NCBI GenBank assembly: GCA_046484145.1
Contig: JAWOBS010000308.1
Coordinates: 1-33,277, forward strand
Source: Bacteroidales bacterium
GTDB taxonomy: Bacteria > Bacteroidota > Bacteroidia > Bacteroidales > UBA7960
DNA: 33,277 nt
Direction of reading: 5' to 3'
Under the pieces are notes generated by a model. It was not told the DNA's origin, searched no databases, and was given only the letters and a program-made list of their open reading frames with translations. A program made the position numbers and the translations under genes. Of the stretch, positions 4,171 through 22,618 are shown piece after piece (positions within the stretch are counted from its first letter, which is position 1; every line of letters starts with the position of its first letter).

Positions 4171-4230
4171 AATAAACCAATGCTATAATTATCATCAATT
4201 ATTAAAACTTATTTGTTATAACATCACTTA

Positions 4231-5121: not shown

Positions 5122-5230
5122 AGGTAACTCAATAACTTATTTTTATTTATACATAAGAGTCATACTATTTTTACCAAACAATTAATTAAAAATAGAGATT
5201 TCGTTTTAGCAATTTTAAACATTTTAGCAA

Positions 5231-6250: not shown

Positions 6251-6301
6251 CTCAAAGAAAGCTATGCAATATCTTTTTTCAGAATGAAAAATTATAAAAG
6301 C

Positions 6302-6499
6302 TTAGCTGCTTGCATCCTGATTTTTACATTCAGTTGCTTCATTGCCTTTGCATGAACAAGGTATTTTTTTTCCTGTCTTAGGGTCTATCGTACTGCCGCA
6401 TTCTTTCTTAAAAGAACCACCAGGCAACAAAAACATTTTAATTGCAATGCCTCCTATTGCTATTGCAATTAAAATGATAGCTAAAATAAAAACTTGCAT
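6302..6499 (-). CDS. Small single-TM Cys-rich protein, NqrM-like (putative Na+-NQR maturation factor)
   Basis: 65 aa with an N-terminal hydrophobic helix followed by four Cys (KECGS, PCSC, TEC). Adjacent to apbE and preceded by its own TAnnTTTG box. Confidence 0.65.
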   Translation of the reverse strand: MQVFILAIILIAIAIGGIAIKMFLLPGGSFKKECGSTIDPKTGKKIPCSCKGNEATECKNQDASS

Positions 6500-6530
6500 A
6501 GAAATCTCGGTTTATTATTTATGAGGCTAA

Positions 6531-6538
6531 CAAAGTTA
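6531..6538 (-). promoter_or_regulatory. Bacteroidota sigma-A -7 element (TAACTTTG) upstream of the NqrM-like gene
   Basis: Plus-strand CAAAGTTA matches TAnnTTTG on the minus strand about 30 nt before the ATG at 6499. No clear -33 TTTG was seen. Confidence 0.55.
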
Positions 6539-6540
6539 AG

Positions 6541-6951
6541 CTACTTTATGTTCATTGTGTTAAGATAGTTGCCCATTGCTTTATCAGACCTACTAATATG
6601 ATCAAACAACCATTCTTTTAAGAATTTGAAAGTTTCTATGCTTACAAATCTCTCTCCCTGTTCTGCTTTCTCAGCTAAAGAATCTAATTGTGCAATTAGA
6701 TTCTCATGCTCTTTTTTATGTGTATTATATTGCGGATAATTTGTTGCCAGCATTTTCCTTTCTTCTGCACTGAAATGATAGTTTGTATAATCTTTTAACT
6801 CTTTAAAAACTTTTTCTAATACTTCCTGGCCTTTTCCGTCCATCATTTTTTGGTGAAAAAGATTTATCAGGTCAACAAGATTTTTGTGATGCTGATCAAA
6901 CTCATCAACATTAATACTGTATAGTGTTGGATGCCATTTTATAAAACTCAT
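6541..6951 (-). CDS. Bacteriohemerythrin (single domain)
   Basis: W...YS...FDQHH, HFSAEE, HKKEH and WLFDHISRSD give the full di-iron ligand set. Confidence 0.93.
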   Translation of the reverse strand: MSFIKWHPTLYSINVDEFDQHHKNLVDLINLFHQKMMDGKGQEVLEKVFKELKDYTNYHFSAEERKMLATNYPQYNTHKKEHENLIAQLDSLAEKAEQGERFVSIETFKFLKEWLFDHISRSDKAMGNYLNTMNIK

Positions 6952-6968
6952 AACTAAAACTTTTAATT

Positions 6969-7376
6969 TTATTTTAAACCTCTTTTTATAAAAAATGAAG
7001 AATAACGCTTATCAACTCCCTTAATATGATCTGTCAACCACTTCTTAATAAAATTGAATGTCTCTATCGTAATCTCTTTTGATCCGGTTTTATTCTTTTC
7101 AATTAATTCATCCAATTGCTTAATTAAATCTTTGTGCTTTTGTTTATGGTCAAAATACTCAAGATAGCCATATTTAGCCATATCAAGCTCTTCCTCCCTG
7201 AAGTGATATTGAGTATAATCCTTTAATTCATTTAAAATGCCTCCCAGCAATTCTTTGCCTTTACCTTGCATCATAGATTCATGAAGGTTGTTTATAAGGT
7301 CAATAATTTTTTTATGATGATTATCAAACTTGTCTATTTCAACAGAATAGCTTTGATTCCAATTAAACAGTGCCAT
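6969..7376 (-). CDS. Bacteriohemerythrin (single domain), tandem paralog
   Basis: W...YSV...FDNHH, HFREEE, HKQKH and WLTDHIKGVDKRY. Confidence 0.93.
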   Translation of the reverse strand: MALFNWNQSYSVEIDKFDNHHKKIIDLINNLHESMMQGKGKELLGGILNELKDYTQYHFREEELDMAKYGYLEYFDHKQKHKDLIKQLDELIEKNKTGSKEITIETFNFIKKWLTDHIKGVDKRYSSFFIKRGLK

Positions 7377-7394
7377 AATTATAATTTTATTTTA

Positions 7395-7425
7395 CAAAAA
7401 TAAAATAAAACAATATAAGAAGCAA
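7395..7425 (-). promoter_or_regulatory. Putative sigma-A promoter for the hemerythrin pair (TTG-N20-TATTTTTG)
   Basis: Plus-strand CAAAAATA at 7395-7402 and CAA at 7423-7425 fit the Bacteroidota -7/-33 spacing. Confidence 0.5.
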
Positions 7426-7485
7426 TCAAATACTTAAATATGCAATATATTTATTTGTGTTAAATATGATTTGATAAGATTTTAA

Positions 7486-9867
7486 TTAAAACTCCATTCC
7501 AATCATTGTTATATCATCAATTTGCCCGAAGCTTCTTGATTCCGGTGGATTCATCCAGTTATCGAGGGCATCTTCTATTATATTTTTTTGATTATTGATT
7601 GATTCATTGGCTGTTTGGGCTAAAATTGTTTTAAGATTTTTAGACATAAATTTTCTTCCCTGTGGCCCCCCAAATTGATCAACAAGTCCATCGCTAAATA
7701 AATAAATTCTATCACCTTTATTTAATTCGATTTTATGACAGGTAAAATCTTTCATTTTCGGGCTAATTGCCAGTGTCATATTATCTCCTTTAGTAACATC
7801 CACCATTTTTGTAATATCTTCAAATTCTTTGTTTTTATTATCCTTTCTGATAATCCATAATGGTATTCCGGCACCGGCCCAAAAACATTGATTTGTTTTA
7901 GTATTAATAGATAACAGGCTCATATCCATACCGTCTTTTTGCGAGTCTTTCTTTGAAGTTTGGTCAAGTGCTTCGATAACAGTTTCTCTCATTATTTTAA
8001 GAACCTGTGCGGGGTCACTAACCTCTTTTTTCCTGGCGATTTCATTTAGATAGCTAACTCCGAGCATACTCATAAAAGCTCCCGGCACACCATGTCCGGT
8101 ACAATCAGCTACTGCAACCACCAGCCAATCGTTAATCATAGTAGCCCAGTAAAAATCTCCTGAAACTACATCTTTGGGCCTGAAAATAACAAAATGCTCT
8201 CCAAGTAAATAGTCAGCATAGTTTTCCTTAGGCAAAACTGCTTTTTGAATTCTCCGGGCATATCTTATTGAGTCTTCAATTTTAGTTTTTTGAATTTCAA
8301 TATGGTCTTTTTGTTTAATAACCATATTATGCTGAGCTTCAATTTCATCTTTTTGAGCATGTATTTCTTCGTTTGCTTCAATTAAAAGAGCATTTTTCTC
8401 TGTGATAACTTGATTGCTTTTCTTTTTCTGTTGGTACCCCTTGAATACCAGTAAAACCATTATTGTCATTAAAACTGAGCCTGCAATAAAGAAATTTCTT
8501 TGATTTCTCTGACGTTTATTCTCTAGTTCTTTCTTTTCAATAAGCAGTGACTGTTTTTCTATTTCCTGTTGTTTTTTTTCAGTTTCATATTTTGTTTGCA
8601 TTTCAGCCAGTGCTTTTGTTTTTTCCTCATTAAACATTGAGTCCTTTGTAGCAATATACACCTCTGCAAACTCCAGGGCATCCCTATAATTTCCTGCCTT
8701 TTTATAAATTCGCTTAAGGTTTCCCGCTACATTATTTTGTACTGGTAAGGCTCCAATTTTAAGAGCTAAATCATAAGCATTATGGCCATATTCAAGGGCT
8801 GAGATGATTATTTCTTCCAGCTCACTGCCTGTAGCTTTTTGAGCCATGTCAACATACAATTCTGCTATATTTGTATAAACTATTGCCTGCCCTTGCAAAT
8901 CACCGCTTTCCTCATCGATTTTTAATGCTTTAATATATTCTGCAATAGCTTTATCGTGCTCGTCCTGCTCACGGTAAACATTGCCAATATTTGTATAACT
9001 AGCCGACATTCCTCTCTGATCACCAATCTGCTCTTTTATTTCTAATGATTTTTTGTGATATTCAATTGCCTCATCATACATCTTATTGTCGGAATGAAAA
9101 TTTCCAATATTATTGTACACAACTGATAAGCCTCTGATATCTTCAAGCTCTTCGTATATTTCCTGTGCCTTTAATGAGTAATCTATAGAACTATCAAAAT
9201 TTCCCTGGTTATGATAAATAAGGCCTATATTAGCATAGCTGTCTGCTACACCCTTATGATCACCAAGGCCTTCCCTAATTTTTAAAGATTTTAAAAAATA
9301 ATCAATTGACTTATCATAATTTCCTTGATCAAAATATACTATCCCTATATTGTTAAAAGATCTTGACATACCAATGGAATCCTGAATTGCAATATTCATT
9401 TCAAGAGATTTTTCATAATTTTCAATAGCTAATTTATAATTACCTTGCGTCCTGTATATAATTCCAATATTATTGAATGATCTGGCCATTCCTTCTTTAT
9501 CATCAAACTTTTCTTCTATTGCAAGAGATTTTAAATAGTAACTCATAGCGATATCTACATCTCCCAGCACATGATAAACTATTGCCAAATTACCCATAGC
9601 TAAAGACTTCTCTTCTTCATATTCATTTTCTTCAGCTATTTTAATACTCTTATTATAATAATATATTGCTGAATCCGGAACAAGGTGTTCATAAACATCT
9701 CCTATATCAATGTATAAAACACATCTCTCTCTGTCCTCTTTTACATTGCTTAGTACATTATGAAGTGAATCAAGTTTAGTTTGATCCTGGGAAGCAAGGT
9801 TTAATATGGAAATGTTTAATATAATTATTGCAGTTACAAGCTTAATTATAAATTTATTATGTATCAT
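7486..9867 (-). CDS. Membrane-anchored sensor phosphatase: periplasmic TPR array, TM, coiled coil, SpoIIE/PP2C domain
   Basis: Signal peptide ending LAS-Q and about 40-aa repeats with NNIG cores. TM FFIAGSVLMTIMVLLVF. PP2C motifs VSGDFYW, DCTGHGVPGAFMS, DGMD, FSDG and QIDD. Confidence 0.9.
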   Translation of the reverse strand: MIHNKFIIKLVTAIIILNISILNLASQDQTKLDSLHNVLSNVKEDRERCVLYIDIGDVYEHLVPDSAIYYYNKSIKIAEENEYEEEKSLAMGNLAIVYHVLGDVDIAMSYYLKSLAIEEKFDDKEGMARSFNNIGIIYRTQGNYKLAIENYEKSLEMNIAIQDSIGMSRSFNNIGIVYFDQGNYDKSIDYFLKSLKIREGLGDHKGVADSYANIGLIYHNQGNFDSSIDYSLKAQEIYEELEDIRGLSVVYNNIGNFHSDNKMYDEAIEYHKKSLEIKEQIGDQRGMSASYTNIGNVYREQDEHDKAIAEYIKALKIDEESGDLQGQAIVYTNIAELYVDMAQKATGSELEEIIISALEYGHNAYDLALKIGALPVQNNVAGNLKRIYKKAGNYRDALEFAEVYIATKDSMFNEEKTKALAEMQTKYETEKKQQEIEKQSLLIEKKELENKRQRNQRNFFIAGSVLMTIMVLLVFKGYQQKKKSNQVITEKNALLIEANEEIHAQKDEIEAQHNMVIKQKDHIEIQKTKIEDSIRYARRIQKAVLPKENYADYLLGEHFVIFRPKDVVSGDFYWATMINDWLVVAVADCTGHGVPGAFMSMLGVSYLNEIARKKEVSDPAQVLKIMRETVIEALDQTSKKDSQKDGMDMSLLSINTKTNQCFWAGAGIPLWIIRKDNKNKEFEDITKMVDVTKGDNMTLAISPKMKDFTCHKIELNKGDRIYLFSDGLVDQFGGPQGRKFMSKNLKTILAQTANESINNQKNIIEDALDNWMNPPESRSFGQIDDITMIGMEF

Positions 9868-10049
9868 AGCGGCAAAAAAAATTATAAATTTTGAAAAATA
9901 ATTGTAGAAAATAATCCCATAAAATTAACAGGATTACTATAACTACAAAACAAAGTTTTTCGTAATTTTTCAACCTTTATTTTAATCGGTTGTTTAACAG
10001 CGGGTTGCAATGCAAAAAAAATGAAAGAATTAGGCTTGTACTTATAATT

Positions 10050-12311
10050 CTATTTCAAATTACTGAAAATAATTTCAGAATCGGGGGAAACAATAAAGTA
10101 TTCCATGTTTTCTCCAACTTCATCAAGATATCCGGTTCTGCCAATTAAGCTTATCTCATCACTTGAAATATTAAATACCTTGGTAAGAAAGACGCTGTTT
10201 TCATATAACACGGGAGTAGTTTTTATTACCTCTCCTTCCGGAGAAATTTCAAGCATAACAAAAGACCAGTTTTCTCCCATATTATTTGTTATCTGAGCAT
10301 CATTATTTATTTCATAATGTTGATAATTAAGAAAAGCCAGGTATTTATCTTCTGCTTTAACCACATCAACTAATTGCCCTTTAATTTTTAGTTCAATATC
10401 CCAATTAATGCCTGTTGTATCAGCATGCACAATATTAACAGAAGAAAATGCCCCCGGAATATACCTGTCCTTTTGTCCAAAACCCATTATAGTAATCTGA
10501 TTTATTTCATCAAAACTCAAATAAAAAGGAAAATCTTCAAATCCAGTATCAAGAACATTTAATTTTTCTCCTTCATTATCCAGATGCACTAAGTAATGGT
10601 TTTTAATTAATACTTCCTGTTCAATGTCCATACTATCCAATTCAGTAACCAAAGCATTTCCCGAGATAATGCCCTTAACACCATTTTCATATGCATAAAG
10701 CATTTCAGTTTTATATGAACCTTCATGGTTTGTGCCCATAGTATCGAATTCTTTTAACCACTGAATTTTATTTATATCTGCGATTTTGGCTATAAAAGCT
10801 TTGGATTTATTATTGTCGATATTTACAAATCCACAAGCATATGTTGGCTCGTCATCATGATATGCAATATCGGTTGTCACATATTGTAAAGAGCTAAATT
10901 CCTCGCTATCTTCAGCAACAACATATAAAGGAAGAGATATTCCATTATTATTAGAAGCAAATTTCTGCTCTTGCCTTATCTGTTCTATATTATCAAAATA
11001 GTCCTTTAGATTCAAAAGGTTATTACTAAAATTCTTTCTCAGATAGTCATGTTGCTGAACATAAAAACGCTTTAAACCTTGTTCTCCGCCATAAACATCA
11101 TTAAAAAAATCATTGAATCTTACAACACGTTCCGGTGTAATGGCAATATTAAACTCATCAAGGCGCGTTTTGCTTATATTCAAAGATTTGGCCAGCCTGT
11201 AGTAAAAACGTAGTTTTCTGTTCATCATTTCAGCAGTAGAATCAGCAGGGGAATTAATCTGATTTTTGCTTAGCAGCAGGTATTGCTGTTTTGCTTCAAG
11301 GTATCTGAAAAGTTCACGAATAAGCGAATTATTATCATACCTCCCAATTCTATAAAGAAAGAATTCATCATAAACCTCTAGTTTCGTTTCCTCATCAACA
11401 TAATCCAGCCTGTTAATCAGCTTTGCATTGTTTGAAAACAACTTTTGCACCTTATTCACTTCCTCTCTTAGCGTGATAATTTCATCGGTATATGTTTGTA
11501 TAAAATCATCAGTCCATTTTTCATAATTCCACAAATAGAAAGTATCTAGCAAGAAATTGCTATTTGTAAGTCCGTCTAATCTAAAAGTTTGAATATCACG
11601 CAAAAAGTATACTTGTTCTTTTTTATCAGAAAAAAAGCTTTTACGAAAAGCTTTGTAGTTTTCAAATTCCTCCAGGCTACTGTTAAAATTACTTTTCAGG
11701 CTCTCAAGTAATCTAAGCAGATCATCATCTGTTTGCAAATAAACTTCATTAAGGTTGTCGTAATTTTGGTTTATGTCATTGAATATGCGCACACAGGTAT
11801 TATAATGATCTTTTGATTTTTCAAAAGTTGTAAATAGATTTAAAACAGAATCTTTGTAATTTTTGCAGTATTCAATTCTTTCAAGTGTATAATTGATAAC
11901 ATCTTCATTATTCAGCCTTTTACCTGAAGCCTCAATAGGAATATTTTTATAATATTCTCTGTTTCTTCTTACCTCTGCGTTCTCAAGATAGGCAGGGAAC
12001 AACTGATAGTAAAGAACTGCATTAGATGCCCAGTGATTAATATGCTCGATATCCTGCAATGGATCGAGACCTGTAAAAATCTCTTCACAAACATTTCCCA
12101 ACTGGATGTATGTATTAGCAAACTGTGGATTCTGTGATTGATAATTAAAAAGCCTGTAAAACGCCTGTTCTTTAGTTAATTTATCTAGCTCCTCAATTAA
12201 ATCTCCATAATTAATCTTTTGTGCTTTTAATCCAAGGGCAAAAAACACAAACAAAATGGCAAGTAGCGGCCATAATGAATTTGTTTTTATATTGACACGA
12301 ATCTTTTTCAT
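10050..12311 (-). CDS. Exported hypothetical protein (helical N-terminal region, beta-rich C-terminal region)
   Basis: 753-aa ORF with a Sec signal peptide ending LKA-Q, 37 bp downstream of the OmpA gene on the same strand. No family recognised. Confidence 0.8.
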   Translation of the reverse strand: MKKIRVNIKTNSLWPLLAILFVFFALGLKAQKINYGDLIEELDKLTKEQAFYRLFNYQSQNPQFANTYIQLGNVCEEIFTGLDPLQDIEHINHWASNAVLYYQLFPAYLENAEVRRNREYYKNIPIEASGKRLNNEDVINYTLERIEYCKNYKDSVLNLFTTFEKSKDHYNTCVRIFNDINQNYDNLNEVYLQTDDDLLRLLESLKSNFNSSLEEFENYKAFRKSFFSDKKEQVYFLRDIQTFRLDGLTNSNFLLDTFYLWNYEKWTDDFIQTYTDEIITLREEVNKVQKLFSNNAKLINRLDYVDEETKLEVYDEFFLYRIGRYDNNSLIRELFRYLEAKQQYLLLSKNQINSPADSTAEMMNRKLRFYYRLAKSLNISKTRLDEFNIAITPERVVRFNDFFNDVYGGEQGLKRFYVQQHDYLRKNFSNNLLNLKDYFDNIEQIRQEQKFASNNNGISLPLYVVAEDSEEFSSLQYVTTDIAYHDDEPTYACGFVNIDNNKSKAFIAKIADINKIQWLKEFDTMGTNHEGSYKTEMLYAYENGVKGIISGNALVTELDSMDIEQEVLIKNHYLVHLDNEGEKLNVLDTGFEDFPFYLSFDEINQITIMGFGQKDRYIPGAFSSVNIVHADTTGINWDIELKIKGQLVDVVKAEDKYLAFLNYQHYEINNDAQITNNMGENWSFVMLEISPEGEVIKTTPVLYENSVFLTKVFNISSDEISLIGRTGYLDEVGENMEYFIVSPDSEIIFSNLK

Positions 12312-12348
12312 TGCTCAAATTTTGTTTCTAACAAAACGATAAAGTTTA

Positions 12349-14430
12349 TTATTGTACATCCAATATTTTAAATTCTACTCTTCTGTTTAATGCCCTGTTT
12401 TCCTCCGTTGTATTTGGCACCATTGGGTTTCTTAGCCCATAACCTCGTGCAATAATATTATCTTCAGGTACTTCATTATCCAGCAAGTAATTCACTACAG
12501 ATTGTGCTCTGCGCTTAGAGAGCATCATATTATAAGCATCACTGCCAACATCATCTGTATGTGCAGCTATTTCGAGTACGATATTGGGATTAGTAAACAT
12601 GAGGTCAACAACCCGGTCTAACTCTGCAAATGATTCGGAGTTTAGCTCTGCTGAATTTGTTGCAAAATGAATATTATTAAGCCTGATAGTGGTCTCTTTT
12701 TTCAGAGATACCAGGTCAACTTCAACATTTGTTTGTTTCTCTTCTCCTAAGTTAACCACCTGGTTGTGAAACGAATAGCCTTCCGCCCCTTTAATAGTAA
12801 ATTCATATTGGTCACCTTCTCTAAGCATGGCAGTAACTTTACCATCTTTTATATCCTGTGCAGAGAAAAAGATTGTTTCCTCCCTGTTTAAGTTGGTAAT
12901 AAAGACATCTGCATTAACAGCATCTTTGGTTTCGTAGTCGGCAATAGTAATTTCAAATGGTATTTTTATTGGTTCCAGAGGCATATTTCTTTCAAACCTT
13001 GAAAAAACTATATCACCGGAAAGGTTAAATTCAAATTCATTATCCTTAAAACCTGATGCTTTTGCAGCTATTAGATATTTTTGGCCAATGGGTAATCTTA
13101 GAGAGTATTTTCCATTTTCTATTTTTTCTGCCTTTACAATTTTTCTTTTAACATCTGAACTATCTTCAGTTATTATTTCTGCCCAAACCTCAGCTTCGAG
13201 TGGCCTGAATATTTCACCATCATAGACAGAAATAACGAGGTCGGTTTCATCGAAGAGCTCAATAAGCTCAGGCCCGGTGATTTTCTCATCTTCTCTGTAA
13301 TCGAGCTGGAAGCTTGCAAAAGAAAGTCCGGGATTTCTTACATCCACAATATAATTCTTATTATCCAACAAAGGAATCTCGTATATTCCACTCTGACTAT
13401 CAGAATAGTAGTTGCCGATAACTTGCAGTGTTGTTGGGTCAAATACAGTTAGCCCGGCTCTTACAGGCCTTTTTATCGCCTGGTTTATAATTCTGCCCCG
13501 GCTCACAATTGTTTTTTCAGGCAAATATTCTTCCTGCAGCTCAAATGAATATATAGATCCTACAGTTTCTCTCCTAATTTCCGCCTCTCTGAGAAAAAAT
13601 AACTTATTGCCGGCTAACCTGGGATTAATATTAGATTCCTCAGAAGCTATATTTGGAATTTTGACAGGAAGCATCCATGAATTTGAATAAATCTCCTTAG
13701 CATAATAAATGTCATAGCTCTCTTTATGATTATCCTGGTCTACAGATGAAAAATAAACAGTTTTTCCGTCATCTGCTACCATAAAACTATGTTCACATGC
13801 TTTGTTTATTGCATCATGCAAGGGAATTGGCGTCTCCCAATCACCTGAAACATTTCTGACAGCTGAATATATAACCTGACAATCTCTTGTTCTTCGGGGT
13901 TTTCTTGCATCTGATTGGGGGTTTCTTCTGGAGAAAAATATTTTTTGTTCCCCGACTGCCATATAAGGGTATAATTCATCAGCATGTGTGTTGATTGTTT
14001 TTTCAAGGCTTATTGGTTCGCTCCAACCTGTCCTGGTTTTATACGAGTAATAAATATCATAACCACCAACTGCATCAGTATAATTTGCATGAAAGTATAT
14101 AATACTTGCATTATAATCAAATGATGGGCCTCCGATATTAGCATTGCCGCCACCATAGTTATTAACTGAATTTATTGGAACCGGATCGCTCCAGGAACCT
14201 CTTAATAACCTTGTTTCAAACATTTGATCACGGCCATTATGTTCAACAATTATCACCATATAATCAGCGGAGTTGTTAATTGAAAAGCTCTTTATAGTAT
14301 TCCAATTTACAAATAATTCCGGCGATGGTTCTGTTTGGGCATCTACAACTTTTATAAGGGTGAAAACCATTAAAACCGGAAACAATAATGACAACTTTAC
14401 TAAAAAAGATATTTGCTTATTCCGGGCCAT
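12349..14430 (-). CDS. OmpA-family peptidoglycan-binding protein with PD40 propeller and carboxypeptidase-regulatory-like Ig domains (PorE-like architecture)
   Basis: Signal peptide VDA-Q. PD40-type motifs (GGYDIYYS, WSEP, DGKTVYFSS). C-terminal OmpA domain LNNIHF...AHTDDVGSDAYNMMLSKRRAQSV...NRRVEF. Confidence 0.9.
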   Translation of the reverse strand: MARNKQISFLVKLSLLFPVLMVFTLIKVVDAQTEPSPELFVNWNTIKSFSINNSADYMVIIVEHNGRDQMFETRLLRGSWSDPVPINSVNNYGGGNANIGGPSFDYNASIIYFHANYTDAVGGYDIYYSYKTRTGWSEPISLEKTINTHADELYPYMAVGEQKIFFSRRNPQSDARKPRRTRDCQVIYSAVRNVSGDWETPIPLHDAINKACEHSFMVADDGKTVYFSSVDQDNHKESYDIYYAKEIYSNSWMLPVKIPNIASEESNINPRLAGNKLFFLREAEIRRETVGSIYSFELQEEYLPEKTIVSRGRIINQAIKRPVRAGLTVFDPTTLQVIGNYYSDSQSGIYEIPLLDNKNYIVDVRNPGLSFASFQLDYREDEKITGPELIELFDETDLVISVYDGEIFRPLEAEVWAEIITEDSSDVKRKIVKAEKIENGKYSLRLPIGQKYLIAAKASGFKDNEFEFNLSGDIVFSRFERNMPLEPIKIPFEITIADYETKDAVNADVFITNLNREETIFFSAQDIKDGKVTAMLREGDQYEFTIKGAEGYSFHNQVVNLGEEKQTNVEVDLVSLKKETTIRLNNIHFATNSAELNSESFAELDRVVDLMFTNPNIVLEIAAHTDDVGSDAYNMMLSKRRAQSVVNYLLDNEVPEDNIIARGYGLRNPMVPNTTEENRALNRRVEFKILDVQ

Positions 14431-14482
14431 ATTTAGTAGTATTGTACTTTTTCTCTAATAGAAACAGATATGATTTTATTAG

Positions 14483-14490
14483 CAAATTTA
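14483..14490 (-). promoter_or_regulatory. -7 element (TAAATTTG) for the leftward OmpA/hypothetical/phosphatase arm
   Basis: Plus-strand CAAATTTA about 50 nt upstream of the ATG at 14430. Confidence 0.45.
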
Positions 14491-14641
14491 TAATATAAAT
14501 CCCGTAAAAGTATATATAATTCATTTTTTATAAGAAATAAAACGTAAAATAACTATATAGCAATCAAAAAAGCCTTTTAATAAATAAAGTTTTTAGTCAA
14601 CTTTTAATGAAAAAAGAATTAATTTAGCATAAACATTTGAG

Positions 14642-14649
14642 TATTTTTG
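14642..14649 (+). promoter_or_regulatory. -7 element (TATTTTTG) for the rightward CHAT arm
   Basis: TAnnTTTG match 38 nt upstream of the ATG at 14688. Confidence 0.5.
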
Positions 14650-14687
14650 TTGCTGACAGGCTTTATATAACACATATTATCAAATAA

Positions 14688-17600
14688 ATGAAAATATTAA
14701 AAATTCATATTTATCTTGCACTAATTTTTGTATTTCAAGTATTATATTCAACAAGTACTTATTCAAATAATTCCGGTTGTAATTTTCAGGATACGCAGGA
14801 AATTCAGAAAATACTTGAAAAAGCAAAATCTTTTGAATCAACAAATGCCGACAGTGCATTTTATTACTATTCTATATTAATACCAAAGGATATTTTTGAA
14901 CAAGATATTTTTAATAATTGGAAAAAGGACTCAGGCCAATCTGAAAAGTATTATACCGCAATTGCTTTAACTGAATCAGGCCTGATTTATTTAAGAAAAG
15001 ATGATGTTTTTAATGGGGAGCAATATTTAAAAAAATCTTTAGTCATAGCTGATATTATTGAAGAGTTTCGCCTTGCTGTTTATGCTTCAAACAACCTTGC
15101 TGTTTTCTTTGCAGAAAGAAAAAACTATTTCAAAGCCATCGAATATTTTGAGATTTCACTTGCTTATAATAAAAAGCTTGCAGATACCGATGGAATTATA
15201 TACTGTAAAGGAAATCTTGGTGCCTTGTACGGAAATATGGGAAATTATTATGCTGCAGCACATTATTATGAAAAGCTGTTGGAACTGCAGCAAAAATCAA
15301 ACATTCCTATAGAAACCGTTAATGAAATAATTAATATAGCGATGCTTTATACCAAACTTAATGAGGCAGAAAAGGCTATAGTATATTGGGAAAAATCACT
15401 GGAAGAGAGTATCAAAAGAGATGAAACTGAGTTTTTAAGTTTAATATATTCCAATCTTGGTTCAAACTATTACGACAAAGAAGAATACGAAAAAGCCTAC
15501 CGTAATTATTTAAAATATCTGGAAATCAGCAAGCTGGCAGGCAACAAAAACAATGAGGTGCTGGCATTGAACAATATAGCTATTATTGAATACACTCTTG
15601 GCAAGTATCATGAATGTATTGAAAGCTGGGAAAAAGTCATTGAGCTGGCCAAAGAAACCGGGCAAGGTCAAATGATCTTTGATGGATTATTAAATCTCAG
15701 TAATATATACTCACAACTTGGAGAGGTGGAAAAATCTCTTAGTTATTATAATCAATACCTGGATATGGGCAGGCAGGTTAATGATCCTGAACTTATAGCC
15801 AAGGCTAACTTAAGTATTGGGGAAGTTTTGATGCAGGCACAAAATTACCCTGAATCGAGAGAATATTTTAAGAAAGCACATGAAGATTATATAACGATGG
15901 GCAATTTTTCTGAAGCTGCCAAGATAAATAATATCATTGCCGGAACATATGCAAGCGAAAACAATATGGTTAAGGCCATAGAATTTTTCAACAAAAACAT
16001 AGACTCCGCGGAGATGAAAGATAGCATGCTAATTGCAGAATCTCATCAAGGATTAGCTGATCTGTTTCGTCAGAACAGGCAATTTGGGCAGGCAATCAAA
16101 AACTATGAAATTGCCCTGTCTATCTATAGGGAAAAACGCCAATTAAACAGGGCTGCATCATGTTTAAATGCACTTGCTAGTGTCCAGGAAGTATATGGTG
16201 ATCTGCCAAAAGCTATTGACCTGTATGAGGAAGCACTTGACTTTGCAGTTGAGATGGGAAACAAAGAAGCAGAGGCTGCTATTTACAATAATATTGGTGT
16301 TGTGTTCAGACAATTGGGAGATTTGCTTAAAGCAGAAAATTCATATTTGAAAGCAACGGTTATATATGAGCAACTTGATAATAAGGATGCGATTGCATAC
16401 TGTTATAACAATCTGGGCGTAATTTATGAAATTGCCGGTGATTATGAAACTGCCAGTGATTATTATCAAAAATCATTTAATATAAAGTTTAACACTAATG
16501 ACAGGAAGGGATTGGCTGCAAGCTTGTTAAATATGGGAAATATCTACAGGTTTCAGGGAGATTTTGAGAATGCTCTGGATTATTATTATCAATCACTTGA
16601 TATATATGAAGAATTAAATGATCAACATGGAATCGCTGTTGTTTTAGCAAGCTTATCAGCTTTAAAAATAGAAACCGGAGAATTTAATGTTGCTATAGGC
16701 CTGGCCGAAAAAAGCAGGGCTATTTCAGAGCAGTATGGCTACCTGAATACTTTAAGGGAGTCATACAGGCAACTTGCATGGGCTCAAAACAAAACTGACA
16801 ATGAGGAAAAAGCGGAACATTACTACCTGAAAGTAATCGAAATGAATCACGATGAGATTACAAGAAACTTTTCTATTCTTTCAGAAAGCGAGAAAGAGAA
16901 GTTTTTTGAAACCGTAGCTGAGGATTTCGAGCGTTTTAATGCATTCGCACTTGAACGTCAGAAAAATAATCCTGAAATTACCGGAGAGGTATATGATAAC
17001 TTATTAAGAAACAAAGGATTATTGCTCAAGTCAAGCACTGCAATGAGAAATGCTGTTTTAAGCAGTGGCGATGAGGAATTAGTGAAAAGTTTCAATAACT
17101 GGATAAGATTAAAACAGGAAATCGCAGAACAATACACTCTGTCTGCTGATGAAAGAAGTGACAATATAAAACAAATGGAAGAAGAGGCAAATGACCTTGA
17201 AAGATTTTTGGTCAGAAACTCAAATGAATTTAGCGAATTTGAACAAAGCCTTGCAGTATCATGGCAGCAAGTAAAACAAAATTTAAAACCTAATGAAGCC
17301 GCCATTGAGTTTACTCATTTCAAAAACTCAAATGATGAAATACTTTATTGCGCATTAATTCTAAAACCGGAAAGAGATTACCCTGAGATGATACCACTTT
17401 TTGATGAAGTGCTGCTTGAAGAGACTACAAACCGGTTTTCAGGTAACAACTATCAGTATATTAGCCAGATATATGGCGAAAGACATTCTGCCTTATCAAG
17501 CTTATATGAATTAATTTGGCGGCCATTAGAAGGTTATCTTCACTATGCTGACAGAATATATCTCTCTCCATCCGGCTTATTGCATAAAATTGCCTTTTCT

Positions 17601-18455
17601 GCTATAAGCGAAGACCGTGATCATTTTTTAATTGATGATTTTGAAATCTATAATCTGAGTACCACAGCAAATGTTGGATCTGATGTAACTATCAATATTA
17701 ACAATGATATTAATTTTTCTTTATTTGGAGGTATTGATTATACAGTTGACTCTGATGATGAATCATGGAGTTATTTGCCGGGAACATTAAGTGAAGTCAA
17801 TAATATAAAAAGTATTGTTAAGCCAATAATAGATAACACTACAGCTAAGACCGGCATTAAAGCTACTGAAGAAAATTTTAAAGAATTGGCCGTAAACAGC
17901 CAAATTTTACACATTGCTACTCACGGTTTCTTTTTTCCCGATCCTGCAACATTGCAAGAAATAGTTACCACGGAAGTTAAGTACGAAGAAGTAATTTTCA
18001 GGGCTGGCAGCCCCGGTTTTGGCCACCGAAACTTCGTTAGCAATAGCAATCCTCTTATGAGATCAGGCTTGGTATTTGCAGGTGTTAATGATTATTGGTC
18101 AGGTAAGAAAGAAATAAAAGATGATGATGGAGTACTGACTGCTTTGGAGGTTATAAATATTGACATGAGAAGAAACCAGCTGGTTGTAATGTCTGCCTGT
18201 GAAACCGGACTTGGAGATATTAAAGGTAGTGAAGGCGTTTATGGATTGCAAAGAGCTTTTAAAATGGCTGGCACAAAACATATGATAATGAGCCTGTGGA
18301 AAGTCCCGGACAAAGAAACAGCAGAATTCATGGAAACTTTTTACAAATTATTACTTGAAGAAAATGACCTGTATCATGCATTTTTGGAAACTCAAAGAAA
18401 GATGAGAGCATTATATGATCCGTTTTATTGGGCAGCCTTTGTTCTTATTAAGTAA
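14688..18455 (+). CDS. TPR-CHAT (caspase/HetF-like, clan CD) cysteine protease with N-terminal signal-like sequence
   Basis: Long array of about 40-aa TPRs. CHAT motifs SPSGLLHKIAF, LPGTLSEV, ILHIATHGFF (His codon 17922-17924), SGLVFAG, VVMSACETGLG (Cys codon 18198-18200), SLWKVPD and PFYWAAFVL. Confidence 0.93.
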   Translation: MKILKIHIYLALIFVFQVLYSTSTYSNNSGCNFQDTQEIQKILEKAKSFESTNADSAFYYYSILIPKDIFEQDIFNNWKKDSGQSEKYYTAIALTESGLIYLRKDDVFNGEQYLKKSLVIADIIEEFRLAVYASNNLAVFFAERKNYFKAIEYFEISLAYNKKLADTDGIIYCKGNLGALYGNMGNYYAAAHYYEKLLELQQKSNIPIETVNEIINIAMLYTKLNEAEKAIVYWEKSLEESIKRDETEFLSLIYSNLGSNYYDKEEYEKAYRNYLKYLEISKLAGNKNNEVLALNNIAIIEYTLGKYHECIESWEKVIELAKETGQGQMIFDGLLNLSNIYSQLGEVEKSLSYYNQYLDMGRQVNDPELIAKANLSIGEVLMQAQNYPESREYFKKAHEDYITMGNFSEAAKINNIIAGTYASENNMVKAIEFFNKNIDSAEMKDSMLIAESHQGLADLFRQNRQFGQAIKNYEIALSIYREKRQLNRAASCLNALASVQEVYGDLPKAIDLYEEALDFAVEMGNKEAEAAIYNNIGVVFRQLGDLLKAENSYLKATVIYEQLDNKDAIAYCYNNLGVIYEIAGDYETASDYYQKSFNIKFNTNDRKGLAASLLNMGNIYRFQGDFENALDYYYQSLDIYEELNDQHGIAVVLASLSALKIETGEFNVAIGLAEKSRAISEQYGYLNTLRESYRQLAWAQNKTDNEEKAEHYYLKVIEMNHDEITRNFSILSESEKEKFFETVAEDFERFNAFALERQKNNPEITGEVYDNLLRNKGLLLKSSTAMRNAVLSSGDEELVKSFNNWIRLKQEIAEQYTLSADERSDNIKQMEEEANDLERFLVRNSNEFSEFEQSLAVSWQQVKQNLKPNEAAIEFTHFKNSNDEILYCALILKPERDYPEMIPLFDEVLLEETTNRFSGNNYQYISQIYGERHSALSSLYELIWRPLEGYLHYADRIYLSPSGLLHKIAFSAISEDRDHFLIDDFEIYNLSTTANVGSDVTININNDINFSLFGGIDYTVDSDDESWSYLPGTLSEVNNIKSIVKPIIDNTTAKTGIKATEENFKELAVNSQILHIATHGFFFPDPATLQEIVTTEVKYEEVIFRAGSPGFGHRNFVSNSNPLMRSGLVFAGVNDYWSGKKEIKDDDGVLTALEVINIDMRRNQLVVMSACETGLGDIKGSEGVYGLQRAFKMAGTKHMIMSLWKVPDKETAEFMETFYKLLLEENDLYHAFLETQRKMRALYDPFYWAAFVLIK

Positions 18456-18540
18456 TTTTTTTTGTTTTTTTAGGATTTTATTATACAAATTTGTACATTT
18501 ATCATCGCAAAACATTAATAATCATAAAAATAGAAGCATT

Positions 18541-19344
18541 ATGAAAGCATTAATAAATATTTTTTTTAGTGTAATTTTTATTACAGCATTACTTAGCACT
18601 TCGCAAATATCTGCACAGGATTATCAAACAATTAGGGTAAATGGGACAATATTATTAGAGAAAAATAATGCAATGTTGGAAAGAGGCACTATATTTAATG
18701 AAGAAGATAATCTTATTTTTAGAACCTATAATTCAATCGCCACAGTCATCAATCCTCAAAAAGGAAGATTTGTTTTAAGGCCGGATAATACAGACCTGGC
18801 ATATGCTAAAGCCAGCTATACGCCTGCAATGAGTAATATCAGCTCCAGGAGTTCAGAGCTTATGACTGTTCTCGACATGAAAAATCACTTTAAAGGGAAG
18901 TATGTGATTTTCGATGAGATAAATCTGAAAATTAACGAAGATGCTTTCCCTATGGATGAAGAAAATTTCTTCTATATTCAATATGTTTATGATGGCGAAA
19001 GAATAAACAAGCAGCTGCCTCACAATGAAGATCAGCTTTTATTAATTAAAGAAGAAATTTACAAAATCGATGGTGAGCCAATCAGTAAAGATGATGTATC
19101 TGAAATGGAAGTTTGGTACATGCAAAGAGATAAGGGTAACAAAAGCACTTTAATTGGCAATTTTGAACCTGTTCTCATTGATAATGAAGAATTAGTGAGT
19201 GAAATAGGTATTATTTTTGAAGTTTATAAAGATAAAACCTGGGAAGAAAAGCTTAATGAAGCATTATCTTTTATGAATGAGTTTTATGGCACTCCAAACA
19301 GGGATAGTCTTGAAGAATGGATAAAAGAAAATATTGAGATATAA
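18541..19344 (+). CDS. Exported hypothetical protein (267 aa)
   Basis: ATG at 18541 gives a clean signal peptide MKALINIFFSVIFITALLSTSQISA-Q. The track start at 18415 overlaps the CHAT gene and is unlikely. Confidence 0.8.
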   Translation: MKALINIFFSVIFITALLSTSQISAQDYQTIRVNGTILLEKNNAMLERGTIFNEEDNLIFRTYNSIATVINPQKGRFVLRPDNTDLAYAKASYTPAMSNISSRSSELMTVLDMKNHFKGKYVIFDEINLKINEDAFPMDEENFFYIQYVYDGERINKQLPHNEDQLLLIKEEIYKIDGEPISKDDVSEMEVWYMQRDKGNKSTLIGNFEPVLIDNEELVSEIGIIFEVYKDKTWEEKLNEALSFMNEFYGTPNRDSLEEWIKENIEI

Positions 19345-19381
19345 AGTATAACCTCAATTAATACCGTCCAAATAGTTTTTT

Positions 19382-22300
19382 ATGTTAAAATTATTTTACA
19401 CACTGTCCATTTTTTTGATTTGGACATTGAATATTTTTGCTGTTTCTTCAGAAGAAAAGCCTCTTGCAAAGCATTACGAAAGACAGCCATTTAAAAATTT
19501 TACTCAAAGAGAGTATGGTGATACCTGTAGTGCCCAAAACTGGGCAATCACCGAAGATGCTCATGGCGTTCTATACTTTGGTAACGCATACAGAGTGTTG
19601 CAATATGATGGTGAAGCATGGAATACCTCACGAATTCCCCTTCACGGTGTATACGTCACAGCTCTTATGGAAGGTAGAGACAAAAACATTTATGTAGGTG
19701 CAAATGGAGAATTCGGCTTTTTAAAGCCAAATAGTATTGGAAAGCTTGAGTATGTTTCTTTATCTGATTCCCTTGAAATTGAAGATTCTTTTTTTAGCAA
19801 TGTATGGAGAATCTATAATTATGACGAACAAGTTTTGTTTTTTTCCCAGGAAAAGATTTTCCTTTGGGATGGTTCTCAAATTAAAACTATTGAGCCCGAA
19901 ACATCTTTCCACCTGGCATTTGTAGTGAACGGAATTTTGTACGCCAGGCAAAGAGAAATAGGCCTGATGAAATACAATGGCAATGCTTTTGAGCTTTTAA
20001 AAAATGGAGAAATTTTTAGTGATTATGGAATTTTTGGAATTTTTCCCGGAGATGATAATGAAGATTTTCTTTTAGTAAGCCAGGAAATAGGGCTATTTAA
20101 GTATTCTCCAATTAGCTCTAAAGGTATAGTTTCTCAAGACAGTCCTTACACCAGGTTTTTAAACAAAGCACAGATAATTGGTGGAATAAAATTGCATAAT
20201 GGCCTTTTTGCTCTAAATACTCTTAATAATGGCGTGATTATAATTAATTCCGAAGGGGATATAACTCAAATTATAGATCAAAATACCGGATTGCCCGGCA
20301 ATGAGGTTAAGCAAGTGTACCAGGACCGTAATAATAATCTCTGGATGAGTTTGAATAGTGGAATCAGCATGCTAAATTACAATACGGGAATAGCAGTTTA
20401 TGATTATAATACCGGTCTTTGGGGTACGCCACAATCTGCTGTATTACATGAAAATCAATTATATGCCGGCACATCTATAGGGCTGTTCAAAAAGATTGTT
20501 TATCCTGACGATAAGGTTTTTAAACATTTTAAACAAATTGGTGATATTAACCTTGACGTAGAAAAAATGATTTCTGTCAGGGATAACTTAATTATTGGCT
20601 CTCCTGATGGATTATTTGTTTGGAACAACAGAACTGGCTTAAAACAAATAGATGATATTGATGCCTCTAGTATTTATTTTTCAGAAGAAAAAGAACTTCT
20701 TATTGCCCTGGGTGAAAATGGCCTTTTTATTTATACAACAAAACCAAAAATACGGCAGTTAGCTTCATACAGAGAACTTTCTTCCGCAAATTCGTTGAAC
20801 ATTCAGGAAGTAACATCTGATAATGAATTACTCGAACTATGGATAGGTACATTAAACGAAGGTGCGTGGAATGTTATTATTAAACCCGACTTCACTTATG
20901 AACTTGATATTTATCTCGGACAGCAAACAGGCTTGGGACAAACCTGGGTAAGGCCTTTTAAATATGATGATGAGGTATTGTTTGGTGTATCCTCTGGCTT
21001 AATGAAGTTTCTAAGAGACTCAACTGCGCAAACAAGTGACTCTACTGGAGAAAAACGCAAACTCGGATATTTTGATTATGTTGATATTCCGGGAGTTGAC
21101 TCTGTATCTGTTTTATTTGTTTCCCAGGATCATAACAGGACATGGGCTTCTTTTGACAATAAGATATATTATGGAAAAGATTTCAACAATCTGAAGCACA
21201 GGCCTTTTAATGTAATCAATGCCGGCCGGATTTTTAATATTTTTCCTTTGGATTCGGCAGTGGTATGGTTAGCAGCAGATGATGGATTAATTAAAGTCAA
21301 TACATTATGGCGTGATGATTATACTCAGAATCCTTTAATCAGCTTCAGGAAAATTCTTACAACAAATGATTCTGTTATTTTTTATTCTCCGGAAAGGATA
21401 GAACCAGAAAGAATTATTTCATTGCCATACTCTTCAAACAGAATAGTATTTGAATTTGCATCGCCCTTTTATGAAAATGGGAATAAAGCAAAATATTCAT
21501 TTTGGTTGGAAGGCTTCGAAGAACGCTGGTCTGAATGGTCAGAAAGTAATTTTAAAGATTATATTAACCTGCGTGAAGGAGAATATACTTTTTTTGTGAA
21601 AGCAAAAGATATTTATGATAATGAAAGTGAAGCCATTTCTTTCGTGTTTAGAATTATGCCTCCATGGTACAGAACTTCCTGGGCATATGTCGGTTATGGA
21701 TTATTAGCGATACTGATAATTTTTGGCATAGTTAAGTTAAGCTTAATGAGGCTTAAAGCAAAAAATATTCAGCTTGAAAAAATCATTGAAAAGCGAACTG
21801 AAGAGATAAGAGCGCAAAAAGACGAAATATCAAGACAACACAAACTTGTTGTACGGCAAAAAGAAGAGATAACAAGCAGCATCAGATATGCCAGCCGTAT
21901 TCAGAATGCACTGGTTCCTGATGAAGAATTCCTGAAATCTTATATTCCCGAAAGTTTTATATTCTGGATTCCCAGGGATATTGTAAGTGGAGATTTTTAC
22001 TGGGTGAAAGTTAGTGAGCCATATATTTCAATAGTAGCAGCAGACTGCACAGGGCATGGCGTGCCGGGTGCATTCATGAGTATGTTGGGTATAGCCTTTC
22101 TGAATGAATTAGCCTTGAGAGAAGAGCCCGGCAAAGTTTCTTCTGTGCTTGAGCAATTGCGCGGGAAGATAAAAACCACTTTAGGACAAACAGGTAACCG
22201 CTCTGAACAAAAAGACGGAATGGATCTGGCCTTTTGCACAATAAACATGGAAACTAATACCTTGTATTATGCCGGTGCCAATAACCCATTATACCTCATA

Positions 22301-22618
22301 CGTAATAATGAAATTATTGAATACAAAGCAACAAGAAATCCTATTGGAATACATCACCGTGAAAAGGCATTTGAAACTCACACTATAGATTTAAAAAAGG
22401 ATGATGTTATTTATTTGTTTTCTGATGGCTACAGGGATCAGTTTGGTGGCGACAAAGGGCTTTGCATGGGGAAAAATGCATTCAGGGAGCTGCTTTTAGA
22501 AATTCACAATATGCCGGTCCTGAAACAAAAAGATATTCTGGAACAAAGACTGAAAGGATGGATGAGAGATGAGTACTTTCAGATTGATGACATACTCATT
22601 GTTGGTTTGAAAATCTAA
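19382..22618 (+). CDS. Membrane sensor phosphatase: two-component-regulator beta-propellers, Y_Y_Y domain, TM, SpoIIE/PP2C domain
   Basis: Propeller repeats (QNWAITEDAHGVLYFG, QDRNNNLWM) and Y_Y_Y domain (YSFWLEGFEERWSEW...YINLREGEYTFFVKAKD). PPWYRTSWAY followed by TM. PP2C motifs VSGDFYW, DCTGHGVPGAFMS, DGMD, FSDG and QIDD. Confidence 0.92.
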   Translation: MLKLFYTLSIFLIWTLNIFAVSSEEKPLAKHYERQPFKNFTQREYGDTCSAQNWAITEDAHGVLYFGNAYRVLQYDGEAWNTSRIPLHGVYVTALMEGRDKNIYVGANGEFGFLKPNSIGKLEYVSLSDSLEIEDSFFSNVWRIYNYDEQVLFFSQEKIFLWDGSQIKTIEPETSFHLAFVVNGILYARQREIGLMKYNGNAFELLKNGEIFSDYGIFGIFPGDDNEDFLLVSQEIGLFKYSPISSKGIVSQDSPYTRFLNKAQIIGGIKLHNGLFALNTLNNGVIIINSEGDITQIIDQNTGLPGNEVKQVYQDRNNNLWMSLNSGISMLNYNTGIAVYDYNTGLWGTPQSAVLHENQLYAGTSIGLFKKIVYPDDKVFKHFKQIGDINLDVEKMISVRDNLIIGSPDGLFVWNNRTGLKQIDDIDASSIYFSEEKELLIALGENGLFIYTTKPKIRQLASYRELSSANSLNIQEVTSDNELLELWIGTLNEGAWNVIIKPDFTYELDIYLGQQTGLGQTWVRPFKYDDEVLFGVSSGLMKFLRDSTAQTSDSTGEKRKLGYFDYVDIPGVDSVSVLFVSQDHNRTWASFDNKIYYGKDFNNLKHRPFNVINAGRIFNIFPLDSAVVWLAADDGLIKVNTLWRDDYTQNPLISFRKILTTNDSVIFYSPERIEPERIISLPYSSNRIVFEFASPFYENGNKAKYSFWLEGFEERWSEWSESNFKDYINLREGEYTFFVKAKDIYDNESEAISFVFRIMPPWYRTSWAYVGYGLLAILIIFGIVKLSLMRLKAKNIQLEKIIEKRTEEIRAQKDEISRQHKLVVRQKEEITSSIRYASRIQNALVPDEEFLKSYIPESFIFWIPRDIVSGDFYWVKVSEPYISIVAADCTGHGVPGAFMSMLGIAFLNELALREEPGKVSSVLEQLRGKIKTTLGQTGNRSEQKDGMDLAFCTINMETNTLYYAGANNPLYLIRNNEIIEYKATRNPIGIHHREKAFETHTIDLKKDDVIYLFSDGYRDQFGGDKGLCMGKNAFRELLLEIHNMPVLKQKDILEQRLKGWMRDEYFQIDDILIVGLKI

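Follow-up and report, generated by a model that had tools for sequence, protein, structure and literature searches.

A conserved, recurring envelope gene module with an exported clan-CD protease in uncultured Bacteroidales

Five adjacent genes on a contig of 33,277 nucleotides from a Bacteroidales bacterium (GenBank assembly GCA_046484145.1, contig JAWOBS010000308.1; hereafter the window) form a conserved, recurring and undescribed envelope gene module of uncultured Bacteroidales. The window is contig C274 of genome G000, an assembly of 2.77 Mb in 359 contigs that is 76.7% complete. The module genes, g2 to g6, are arranged in two divergent arms. One arm encodes g3, an exported protein that ends in an OmpA_C domain, and g2, an exported protein of an unnamed family. 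The other encodes g4, an exported CHAT protease of clan CD with tetratricopeptide repeats (TPR); g5, a small exported protein of a second unnamed family; and g6, a membrane phosphatase of the SpoIIE/PP2C type with a periplasmic sensor. A first-pass annotation of the window had proposed a system of six genes that also took in g1, a second membrane phosphatase next to g2. We found all six open reading frames (ORFs) where that annotation had placed them, with the domains and signal-like N termini it described. Five of the six recur together in other genomes; for g1 this holds in the nearest relative alone. The annotation knew of no characterized pathway with this combination of genes, and we likewise found none described in the full-text literature (supplements apart). 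We read g2–g6 (positions 10,050–22,618) as a composite envelope module in which two older gene pairs, g3–g2 and g5–g6, would be joined by an exported clan-CD protease. This reading, to which we give an even chance, draws only on gene order, fusions, export signals and catalytic residues.

The first pair was defined through g2. We identified 48 g2 homologues, all hypothetical or unnamed and all from metagenomes or metagenome-assembled genomes of Bacteroidota or Bacteroidales. A profile built from 22 of these homologues (A1) yielded 49 loci on contigs from one genome per species, with up to 10 kb on each side, and a g3 homologue lay directly upstream of g2 in 48 of the 49. The exception was L057, in which the gene directly upstream of g2 is of the g6 type (Reg_prop/Y_Y_Y/PAS/SpoIIE). 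Locus L053, from the cultivable Breznakibacter xylanolyticus DSM 6779, has g3–g2 and none of the other module genes. No match to g2 was found in Pfam, NCBIfam or PADLOC. Its structure model, with a predicted local distance difference test (pLDDT) value of 87.7, contains a domain of long helices and a beta-propeller; in fold searches, the widest of which was dominated by the propeller, this part resembled propellers generally (VIA Z of about 14). For the helical domain, the Atlas leads were TPR-like only and below the bar, and a PDB profile search gave nothing under an E value of 0.27.

The OmpA_C domain (PF00691) of g3 scored 70.5 bits against a Pfam cut-off of 27.2, alongside a weak CarboxypepD_reg match, and in the PDB profile search it matched solved OmpA_C domains at an E value of 1e-27, with that of PorE (6top) among the best. 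The nearest NCBIfam families to g3 were CHU_0125 (167 bits, cut-off 620) and PorE (NF052230; 130.3 bits, cut-off 600), both below cut-off. Pfam detected no TPR in g3, and its N terminus carries a site of the signal-peptidase-I type (VDA-QT) with no cysteine. The PD40 label given to g3 in the first-pass annotation could not be reproduced, as no PD40 match was found in Pfam at an E value of up to 0.01.

A clan-CD protease ORF was present in 24 of the 49 g2-anchored loci (18 CHAT and 6 Peptidase_C14), and L027 adds a CHAT fragment. In 19 of the 49 loci, a TPR-CHAT gene diverges from g3 in the same layout as in the window. Beyond the CHAT gene, 16 of these 19 loci have g5, with a second CHAT paralogue in between in three of the 16, and 13 of the 16 CHAT–g5 loci also have g6; elsewhere, the DNA of the locus ends before the relevant position. 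All five genes occur together in 13 genomes and in one metagenome contig (L068). The first-pass annotation had proposed a check of gene neighbourhoods across related genomes, and its outcome was positive for five of the six genes: g3–g2, g5–g6 and an exported clan-CD protease co-recur in several independent arrangements.

Other arrangements involve a different protease. In L041 and L044, a TPR-C14 gene, g5, g3 and g2 follow one another in this order on one strand, without g6. In four other loci (L020, L024, L028 and L058), the N-terminal half of g3 (residues ~42–524) is fused to a Peptidase_C14 domain, and this gene is followed by a WD40-OmpA gene and then by g2; three of the four (L020, L024 and L058) have g5 two genes further on. 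We placed these loci on a quick IQ-TREE phylogeny of 44 g2 proteins with a midpoint root, from which the truncated sequences of L013, L015, L016, L026, L029 and L050 were left out. The tree has two clades, one of 18 protease-free rows and one of 26 rows that holds every protease-linked locus. The latter comprises 16 CHAT rows, four fusion rows, two TPR-C14 rows, one row with a PP2C gene upstream of g2 and three rows without any of these, two of which (L034 and L035) end at or inside g3. Because the C14-fusion group nests among the CHAT rows (99% SH-aLRT), one clan-CD protease was swapped for another while its neighbours were kept, and once was fused to one of them. This swap and fusion provide the strongest evidence here for a putative functional tie between the protease and g3–g2.

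The CHAT domain of g4 (PF12770) scored 184.4 bits against a cut-off of 24, covers residues 936–1254 and is preceded by a long TPR array. The only other CHAT gene of the genome (C291, 8253–11117; locus L158) encodes 954 amino acids with few TPRs; its neighbours are two unknown genes, a ricin-type lectin, a family-2 glycosyltransferase and an LPG-synthase-like gene, and no g2, g3, g5 or PP2C homologue lies near it. C14 proteases were also found beside g5 elsewhere. A full-length WD40-Peptidase_C14 gene adjoins g5 in L079, L089 and L093, and L088 has a C14 fragment at the end of the contig. In two distant Bacteroidota genomes, a g5 homologue adjoins a gene for a CHASE2-domain membrane protein (L063 in G345 and L064 in G017), and G017, which belongs to the same class as the genome of the window, has three TPR-C14 genes there as well. 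The accessible text of a 2012 survey of prokaryotic caspase homologues mentions N-terminal helices that are possibly signal peptides and fusions to CHASE2, and does not mention this cluster (PMC3501461).

The second pair emerged from a metagenome scan with a g5 profile, which returned 80 loci; in 60 of them another ORF follows the last g5 copy. At 41 loci this ORF is a g6-type Reg_prop/Y_Y_Y/SpoIIE gene on the same strand; eight others have various genes at this position, and the remainder are considered below. The eight include the C14-bearing loci L079, L088, L089 and L093, and also L071 and L074, in which a g6-type gene lies directly upstream of g5. The 41 g5 sequences with a g6-type partner fall into 18 single-linkage groups at 70% identity, and the pairing is therefore not confined to one recent lineage. 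g6 itself matched Reg_prop (PF07494; 33.7 bits, cut-off 20.4), Y_Y_Y (PF07495; 44.7 bits, cut-off 26.6) and SpoIIE (75.3 bits, cut-off 25) in Pfam. A complex prediction for the g6 ectodomain (residues 25–765, with alignment A3 of 19 full-length g6 relatives) and g5 (residues 27–267, with alignment A2) had a score of 0.00, which speaks neither for nor against binding. In three metagenome loci (L098, L099 and L112), a gene for a 456-amino-acid receiver-sigma54 ATPase with an HTH_8 domain diverges from g5–g6.

No Pfam match was found in 26 members of the g5 family, and no sequence match in the PDB. The structure model of g5 (pLDDT 85.6) had no structural relative in Foldseek at an E value of up to 0.001, with a best VIA Z of 6.5, and the FecR leads obtained from the Atlas had TM scores of only 0.27–0.30 and gave no family name. 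A word-indexed search recovered 34 g5 homologues of near-equal length, reaching as far as Crocinitomicaceae, and a full profile search extended the family to 1085 representative clusters at an E value of up to 0.001 (784 at up to 1e-10). Per genome, g5 is rare: besides the genome of the window, only two of 400 sampled Bacteroidota genomes carry it. Flavobacteriales-like loci (L085, L095, L102, L104, L107, L111, L140–L143 and others) have two or three g5 copies in tandem, with a MerR-family gene on one side, guaA and a LysM protein gene on the other, and no phosphatase.

The export signals are conserved across the families. All six products had been described as having signal-like N termini, and these are indeed present in the window and in the relatives. 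By a simple test that looks for a hydrophobic stretch of 12 residues after a basic residue, such N termini occur in 40 of 45 g3, 42 of 44 g2, 19 of 19 g4 and 21 of 22 g6 proteins, and in 19 of 19 and 79 of 81 g5 proteins (98 of 100 combined). We also tested nine C14-type proteases and partners, namely six TPR-C14 or WD40-C14 proteins, the fusion of the g3 N-terminal half to C14 and the WD40-OmpA protein from L020, and a further TPR-C14 protein from L041. Eight of the nine passed; the L041 protein, with the hydrophobic N terminus MKKYFLFFLAATFHFNSIQAQ, fell slightly below the threshold.

Catalytic residues are likewise maintained. An alignment of 28 CHAT proteins of at least 800 amino acids from the loci shows His1079 and Cys1171 of g4, in motifs that we take to form the catalytic dyad, to be conserved in all 28. 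The PP2C motifs SGD[FY]YW and DC[TS]GHG, presumably metal-binding, are intact in g1 and in 23 of 23 g6-type proteins, as the first-pass annotation had indicated for the window, and [FM]SDG and DDI were found in 18 and 16 of the 23, respectively. Both g1 and g6 have one further hydrophobic segment before the PP2C domain, which puts their TPR or propeller part on the periplasmic side and the phosphatase on the cytoplasmic side. In g2, g3 and g5, the likely cleavage site is A-Q, a context that fits the Bacteroidetes Q-rule as worded in the accessible text of two papers (PMC5837995 and PMC10653852).

Several observations count against a composite module. The pairs are mostly apart: only one of the 80 g5-anchored loci (L068) holds g3–g2, and the 13 full blocks stem from related lineages and need not be independent events. 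Only 11 of the 80 g5-anchored loci, many of them short contigs, have a protease. In 11 of the 60 loci with an ORF after g5, that gene is guaA, in a MerR–g5–g5–guaA–LysM context, and in a weak test we found no fused, longer forms of g5. There is no SiaB or SiaC gene in the window, and none was seen in the related blocks. Eighteen of the 44 rows of the g2 tree make up the clade with no protease, g5 or g6 nearby. Moreover, g5 was not found anywhere in five of five genomes of this clade, and the same profile detected g5 in three other genomes; thus, g3–g2 has a role without the other genes. Finally, four salt-lake metatranscriptome runs from two studies contain contigs of 150–320 nt with 0 to ~12 differences from parts of all six genes, but none of these contigs bridges two genes, and carry-over of DNA is possible, so transcription is not proven by them; equally, stretches of the block that they leave uncovered and the lack of bridging contigs are uninformative.

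These data could also mean that two or three units, each independent of the others, just happen to be syntenic in one clade, with g3–g2 serving a structural or outer-membrane integrity role, g5–g6 acting as a self-contained sensor and the protease taking part in general periplasmic processing or quality control, outside any signalling. Each pair is far commoner alone than joined, the families that g3 resembles are CHU_0125 ('outer membrane integrity') and PorE, and the five-gene form is restricted to related Bacteroidales lineages. We nevertheless regard independence as unlikely, because the protease family is swapped and yet its position by g3–g2 is kept, with a fusion to the N-terminal half of g3 in four loci. 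In addition, g5 adjoins g3–g2 without g6 in L041 and L044 and lies near g3–g2 in L020, L024 and L058, a g6-type gene abuts g2 in L057, and g5 is found beside unrelated C14 architectures elsewhere.

In contrast to the other five genes, g1 was not conserved with the block. Its SpoIIE domain (PF07228) is clear, at 78.5 bits against a Pfam cut-off of 25. However, among the 14 CHAT-type loci with any gene downstream of g2, a g1 counterpart was present only in L011, the nearest relative (58% identity in g2). In the other CHAT-type loci, the gene after g2 encodes a receiver-sigma54 ATPase, a metallo-beta-lactamase-fold protein or unrelated products. The receiver-sigma54 ATPase gene (388 amino acids, with no DNA-binding domain detected) follows g2 in L012, L014, L017, L019, L023, L032 and L035. 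The genome has 14 SpoIIE matches and two CHAT matches, and a tblastn search of the six proteins against it revealed many paralogues of the TPR-transmembrane-PP2C type and several of the propeller-PP2C and OmpA types. The pair of flanking PP2C sensors, which had been put forward as a feature of the system, therefore did not hold up. Found again in the nearest relative alone, and belonging to a set of 14 SpoIIE genes in this genome, g1 lies outside the conserved unit, and we conclude that it is a separate paralogue with a TPR input and a local neighbour of the module in this lineage.

The same paralogues bear on whether the whole block could be an adjacency by chance of members of expanded families. 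The first-pass annotation had named many unlinked paralogues as a reason to expect this. That concern applies to the phosphatases but not to g2 and g5, each of which is single-copy in the genome by tblastn. Because phosphatase paralogues are so numerous, recurrence in other genomes had to decide between chance and a module. The adjacencies of g3–g2, of g5–g6 and of the protease recur across dozens of loci, and chance is refuted for g2–g6. Chance does fit g1, to which alone it may still apply, as the 2.77-Mb assembly has many TPR-PP2C and several OmpA paralogues besides its 14 SpoIIE matches; as an account of the block, we find it scarcely credible.

The module is patchily distributed. Of 301 genomes sampled from the order, 42 carry the g2 family, whereas none of three from the window's own family does. 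In one of these three (G683, C22:28000–38000; locus L159), the flanks of the block are kept, with S6-S18-L9-SpoU on one side and ApbE-CDF-Nqr on the other, and the junction between them holds an Mla-like ABC operon (MlaF, STAS-MlaE, an auxiliary lipoprotein and MlaD) in place of the hemerythrin genes and the six-gene block. This patchiness and the presence of an Mla-like operon at the same junction indicate that the block is an accessory insertion at a variable spot.

Accessory status would also suit a system that senses phage or competitors at the envelope, in which the exported TPR-CHAT or caspase-like protein would be a sensor-protease and the phosphatase would relay the alarm to defence or growth arrest. 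Besides the patchy distribution of g2, the different content of the junction in G683 and the turnover of protease type, this possibility draws on DdvA of Myxococcus xanthus, an anti-sigma factor with a periplasmic TPR-CHAT domain for which such a sensor-protease role has been proposed and which, in the accessible text of its description, controls a CBASS/CRISPR defence island (PMC11506125). A search of PADLOC-DB 2.0, however, yielded nothing system-specific. It returned generic TPR matches, MotB-like ZorB matches on the OmpA domain and a weak PDC-S39 match, with no match for g2, g5 or g6. Furthermore, no NTPase, nuclease, sigma/anti-sigma pair or mobile-element gene was found in the block or its relatives, and g4, whose dyad is complete, lacks a transmembrane anti-sigma part. 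We therefore think a role in conflict sensing improbable.

From the observed gene order and recurrence, domains, export signals and catalytic residues, we infer a mechanism for the composite module that specifies the physical interactions, the protease substrate, the direction of the signal and the output. In this mechanism, g3 would bind peptidoglycan through its OmpA_C domain, and g3–g2 would be anchored in the wall as a scaffold or sensor on which the protease docks and by which it is gated. g5 would be a periplasmic co-sensor or modulator of g6, and the tandem propeller/Y_Y_Y region of g6 in the periplasm would control its cytoplasmic SiaA-type PP2C domain at the inner membrane. The protease g4 would most likely cleave a periplasmic component, the best candidates being g5 and the g6 ectodomain. 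In this way, cleavage would convert a change sensed at the wall into altered phosphatase activity, and the g6 phosphatase would then work in balance with SiaB-like kinases. That an exported CHAT or C14 protease docked on the g3–g2 scaffold cleaves g5 or the g6 ectodomain and thereby switches a SiaA-type phosphatase is, in this specific form, a tentative proposal that we consider possible rather than probable.

The signal could also run in the opposite direction. In the LapD–LapG system, an inner-membrane receptor with a cytoplasmic signalling domain is functionally coupled to a periplasmic cysteine protease. The protease family of LapG is a different one, and the signal sensed by LapD is c-di-GMP; the likeness is functional, and we claim no homology. 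By analogy, the cytoplasmic state of g6 might make its periplasmic domain and g5 hold or release the protease, which would cut g3, g2 or a surface protein. The same adjacency data fit such inside-out control, as does the presence of an exported cysteine protease beside a single-pass receptor with a large periplasmic domain. PP2C domains, however, are output enzymes with no known ligand-sensing role, unlike the c-di-GMP-binding LapD, and g5–g6 mostly occur with no protease nearby. We hold inside-out control to be quite improbable, and we retain the composite module with a signal from wall to cytoplasm.

On the cytoplasmic side, the highest-scoring NCBIfam model for the PP2C domains of both g1 and g6 is SiaA (NF038263), matched over the C-terminal part only. 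At 158.3 bits for g1 and 181.1 bits for g6 against a cut-off of 700, they would function as phosphatase domains of the SiaA type but are not SiaA equivalogs. The genome contains five SiaC (PF09345) and three DUF6272/SiaB-like (PF19788) matches above cut-off. STAS (PF01740) and STAS_2 (PF13466) had no matches and PF13581 had marginal ones only, in an assembly whose incompleteness means that absence is not proven; Pkinase (PF00069) likewise had no match in this incomplete genome. For the RsbU-type partner switching cited in the first-pass annotation, these genes lend no support to the STAS form. Because no STAS domain was found and SiaC and SiaB-like genes are present, the output is probably of the SiaABC type, and g6 (and g1) would probably act on SiaC-type phosphoproteins encoded elsewhere.

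Two loci of the same genome link such genes to PP2C phosphatases. In C87 (~2397–9219; locus L156), an operon encodes a GAF-PAS-SpoIIE phosphatase, a DUF6272 protein, SiaC and a TerB-ABC transporter of 1049 amino acids. In C6 (~4832–9730; locus L157), a SiaC gene is followed by genes for a TPR-PP2C phosphatase, an OmpA-domain protein (326 amino acids) and an unknown protein of 569 amino acids. A homologue of the C87 transporter (46% identical) lies directly upstream of g5–g6 in metagenome locus L073, and ABC genes of the same cluster occupy that position in L072 and L075. The TerB-ABC transporter may be an output of such a switch. The two genes before the ABC gene in L073 were considered as SiaB and SiaC candidates and are neither SiaB- nor SiaC-like.

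The features of the block are collected in Table 1.

Table 1. Genes and intergenic region of the block in the window
Feature	Position	Strand	Description
g1	7486–9867	minus	793 amino acids; signal-like N terminus, TPR array, one transmembrane segment, SpoIIE/PP2C (Pfam)
g2 (U753)	10050–12311	minus	753 amino acids; exported, family unnamed; helical N-terminal domain ~35–447, C-terminal beta-propeller ~450–753
g3	12349–14430	minus	Exported, PorE/CHU_0125-like; conserved N-terminal half ~40–520, CarboxypepD_reg-like repeats, OmpA_C 589–683
Divergent intergenic region g3/g4	14431–14687		257 bp; one TAnnTTTG box per strand
g4	14688–18455	plus	Exported TPR-CHAT clan-CD cysteine protease, 1255 amino acids; His1079/Cys1171
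g5 (U267)	18541–19344	plus	Exported, 267 amino acids, unnamed family; small beta domain, Ig-like sandwich, three-helix bundle
g6	19382–22618	plus	Signal peptide, periplasmic Reg_prop propellers and Y_Y_Y, transmembrane segment ~783–805, coiled coil, SpoIIE/PP2C 881–1077

For g5, the longest ORF starts at 18415 and encodes 309 amino acids; the shorter form given in the table fits the length of the closest homologues. The TAnnTTTG boxes reported in the first-pass annotation were found at 14483–14490 (minus) and 14642–14649 (plus). They carry little weight, because the motif is not enriched in the AT-rich window (36 matches, 52 expected). Scans for promoters and terminators gave counts no higher than in shuffled sequence. 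The housekeeping flanks described for the block are also as stated: one has Nqr, ApbE and CDF transporter genes and two hemerythrin genes, and the other has SpoU, L9 and S6. The hemerythrin genes (136 and 135 amino acids) are arranged in tandem between ApbE and g1 (6541–7376, minus), and the right-hand flank includes a DUF7935 family gene (171 amino acids; 25891–26406, minus). Metagenomes of sediment, freshwater sediment and microbialites, from five studies, contain DNA nearly identical to positions 12349–22300 of the window, and salt-lake metatranscriptomes of two further studies contain small shares of it.

Exported caspase-like proteases are common in Bacteroidota and cyanobacteria. To our knowledge, almost none of them there has a known substrate or role. 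The module provides one such protease with a defined, recurring set of candidate partners, namely a wall-anchored pair, a small periplasmic protein and a sensor phosphatase, and thereby makes the role of these proteases testable. It also gives a genomic context to the two unnamed families of g5 and g2, and it suggests that many membrane PP2C sensors of these bacteria feed switches of the SiaB/SiaC type and not STAS. If the proposed mechanism is true, it would connect the cell wall of Bacteroidota to a Ser/Thr partner switch by a proteolytic route not described before and would assign first functions to two unnamed families, one of which has more than 1000 clusters at 50% identity.

Among known systems, DdvA–DdvS appears, by analogy, to be the closest precedent for a TPR-CHAT protein outside the membrane. 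According to the accessible text of its authors, DdvA alone among characterized anti-sigma factors has such a periplasmic domain, and they propose that it undergoes signal-induced autoproteolysis (PMC11506125). Both systems would have a TPR-CHAT domain outside the cytoplasmic membrane that starts transmembrane signalling by proteolysis. In DdvA, as described in that text, the CHAT domain belongs to an anti-sigma factor that crosses the membrane once and carries a zinc-binding domain in the cytoplasm, the active site is incomplete and the output is an extracytoplasmic function (ECF) sigma factor. By contrast, g4 is exported as a protein of its own, its His/Cys dyad is complete, and the membrane protein linked to it is a PP2C phosphatase. 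With only ~20 hydrophobic N-terminal residues before the TPR array of g4 and no sigma-factor gene in the window, the module falls outside a DdvA-like class.

For the output, the closest model is SiaABCD of Pseudomonas aeruginosa, which, in the accessible text of two sources, comprises the PP2C phosphatase SiaA, the kinase SiaB, the phosphoprotein SiaC and the cyclase SiaD (10.1101/674879 and PMC8457831). The likeness lies in the PP2C domains of g1 and g6, which match SiaA best, and in the SiaC and SiaB-like genes of the genome, one set of which is in an operon with a PP2C gene. The inputs differ, being TPR in g1 and propeller/Y_Y_Y in g6; no SiaB, SiaC or SiaD gene adjoins the block; and the gene after SiaC in the C87 operon encodes a TerB-ABC transporter and not a cyclase.

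The PorE lipoprotein of type IX secretion has, in the accessible text of two papers, a TPR-WD40-CRD-OmpA_C architecture (PMC12773672 and PMC7192894), and g3 similarly ends in CRD-like repeats and OmpA_C. However, g3 scores below the family cut-off, lacks the TPR start and the lipoprotein cysteine, and is partnered with g2 and a clan-CD protease and not with type IX secretion genes. Finally, g6 resembles the hybrid two-component sensors of Bacteroides in its periplasmic Reg_prop/Y_Y_Y sensor and single membrane pass, but its output is a PP2C phosphatase in place of a kinase, a receiver and an AraC DNA-binding domain, and it is paired with g5.

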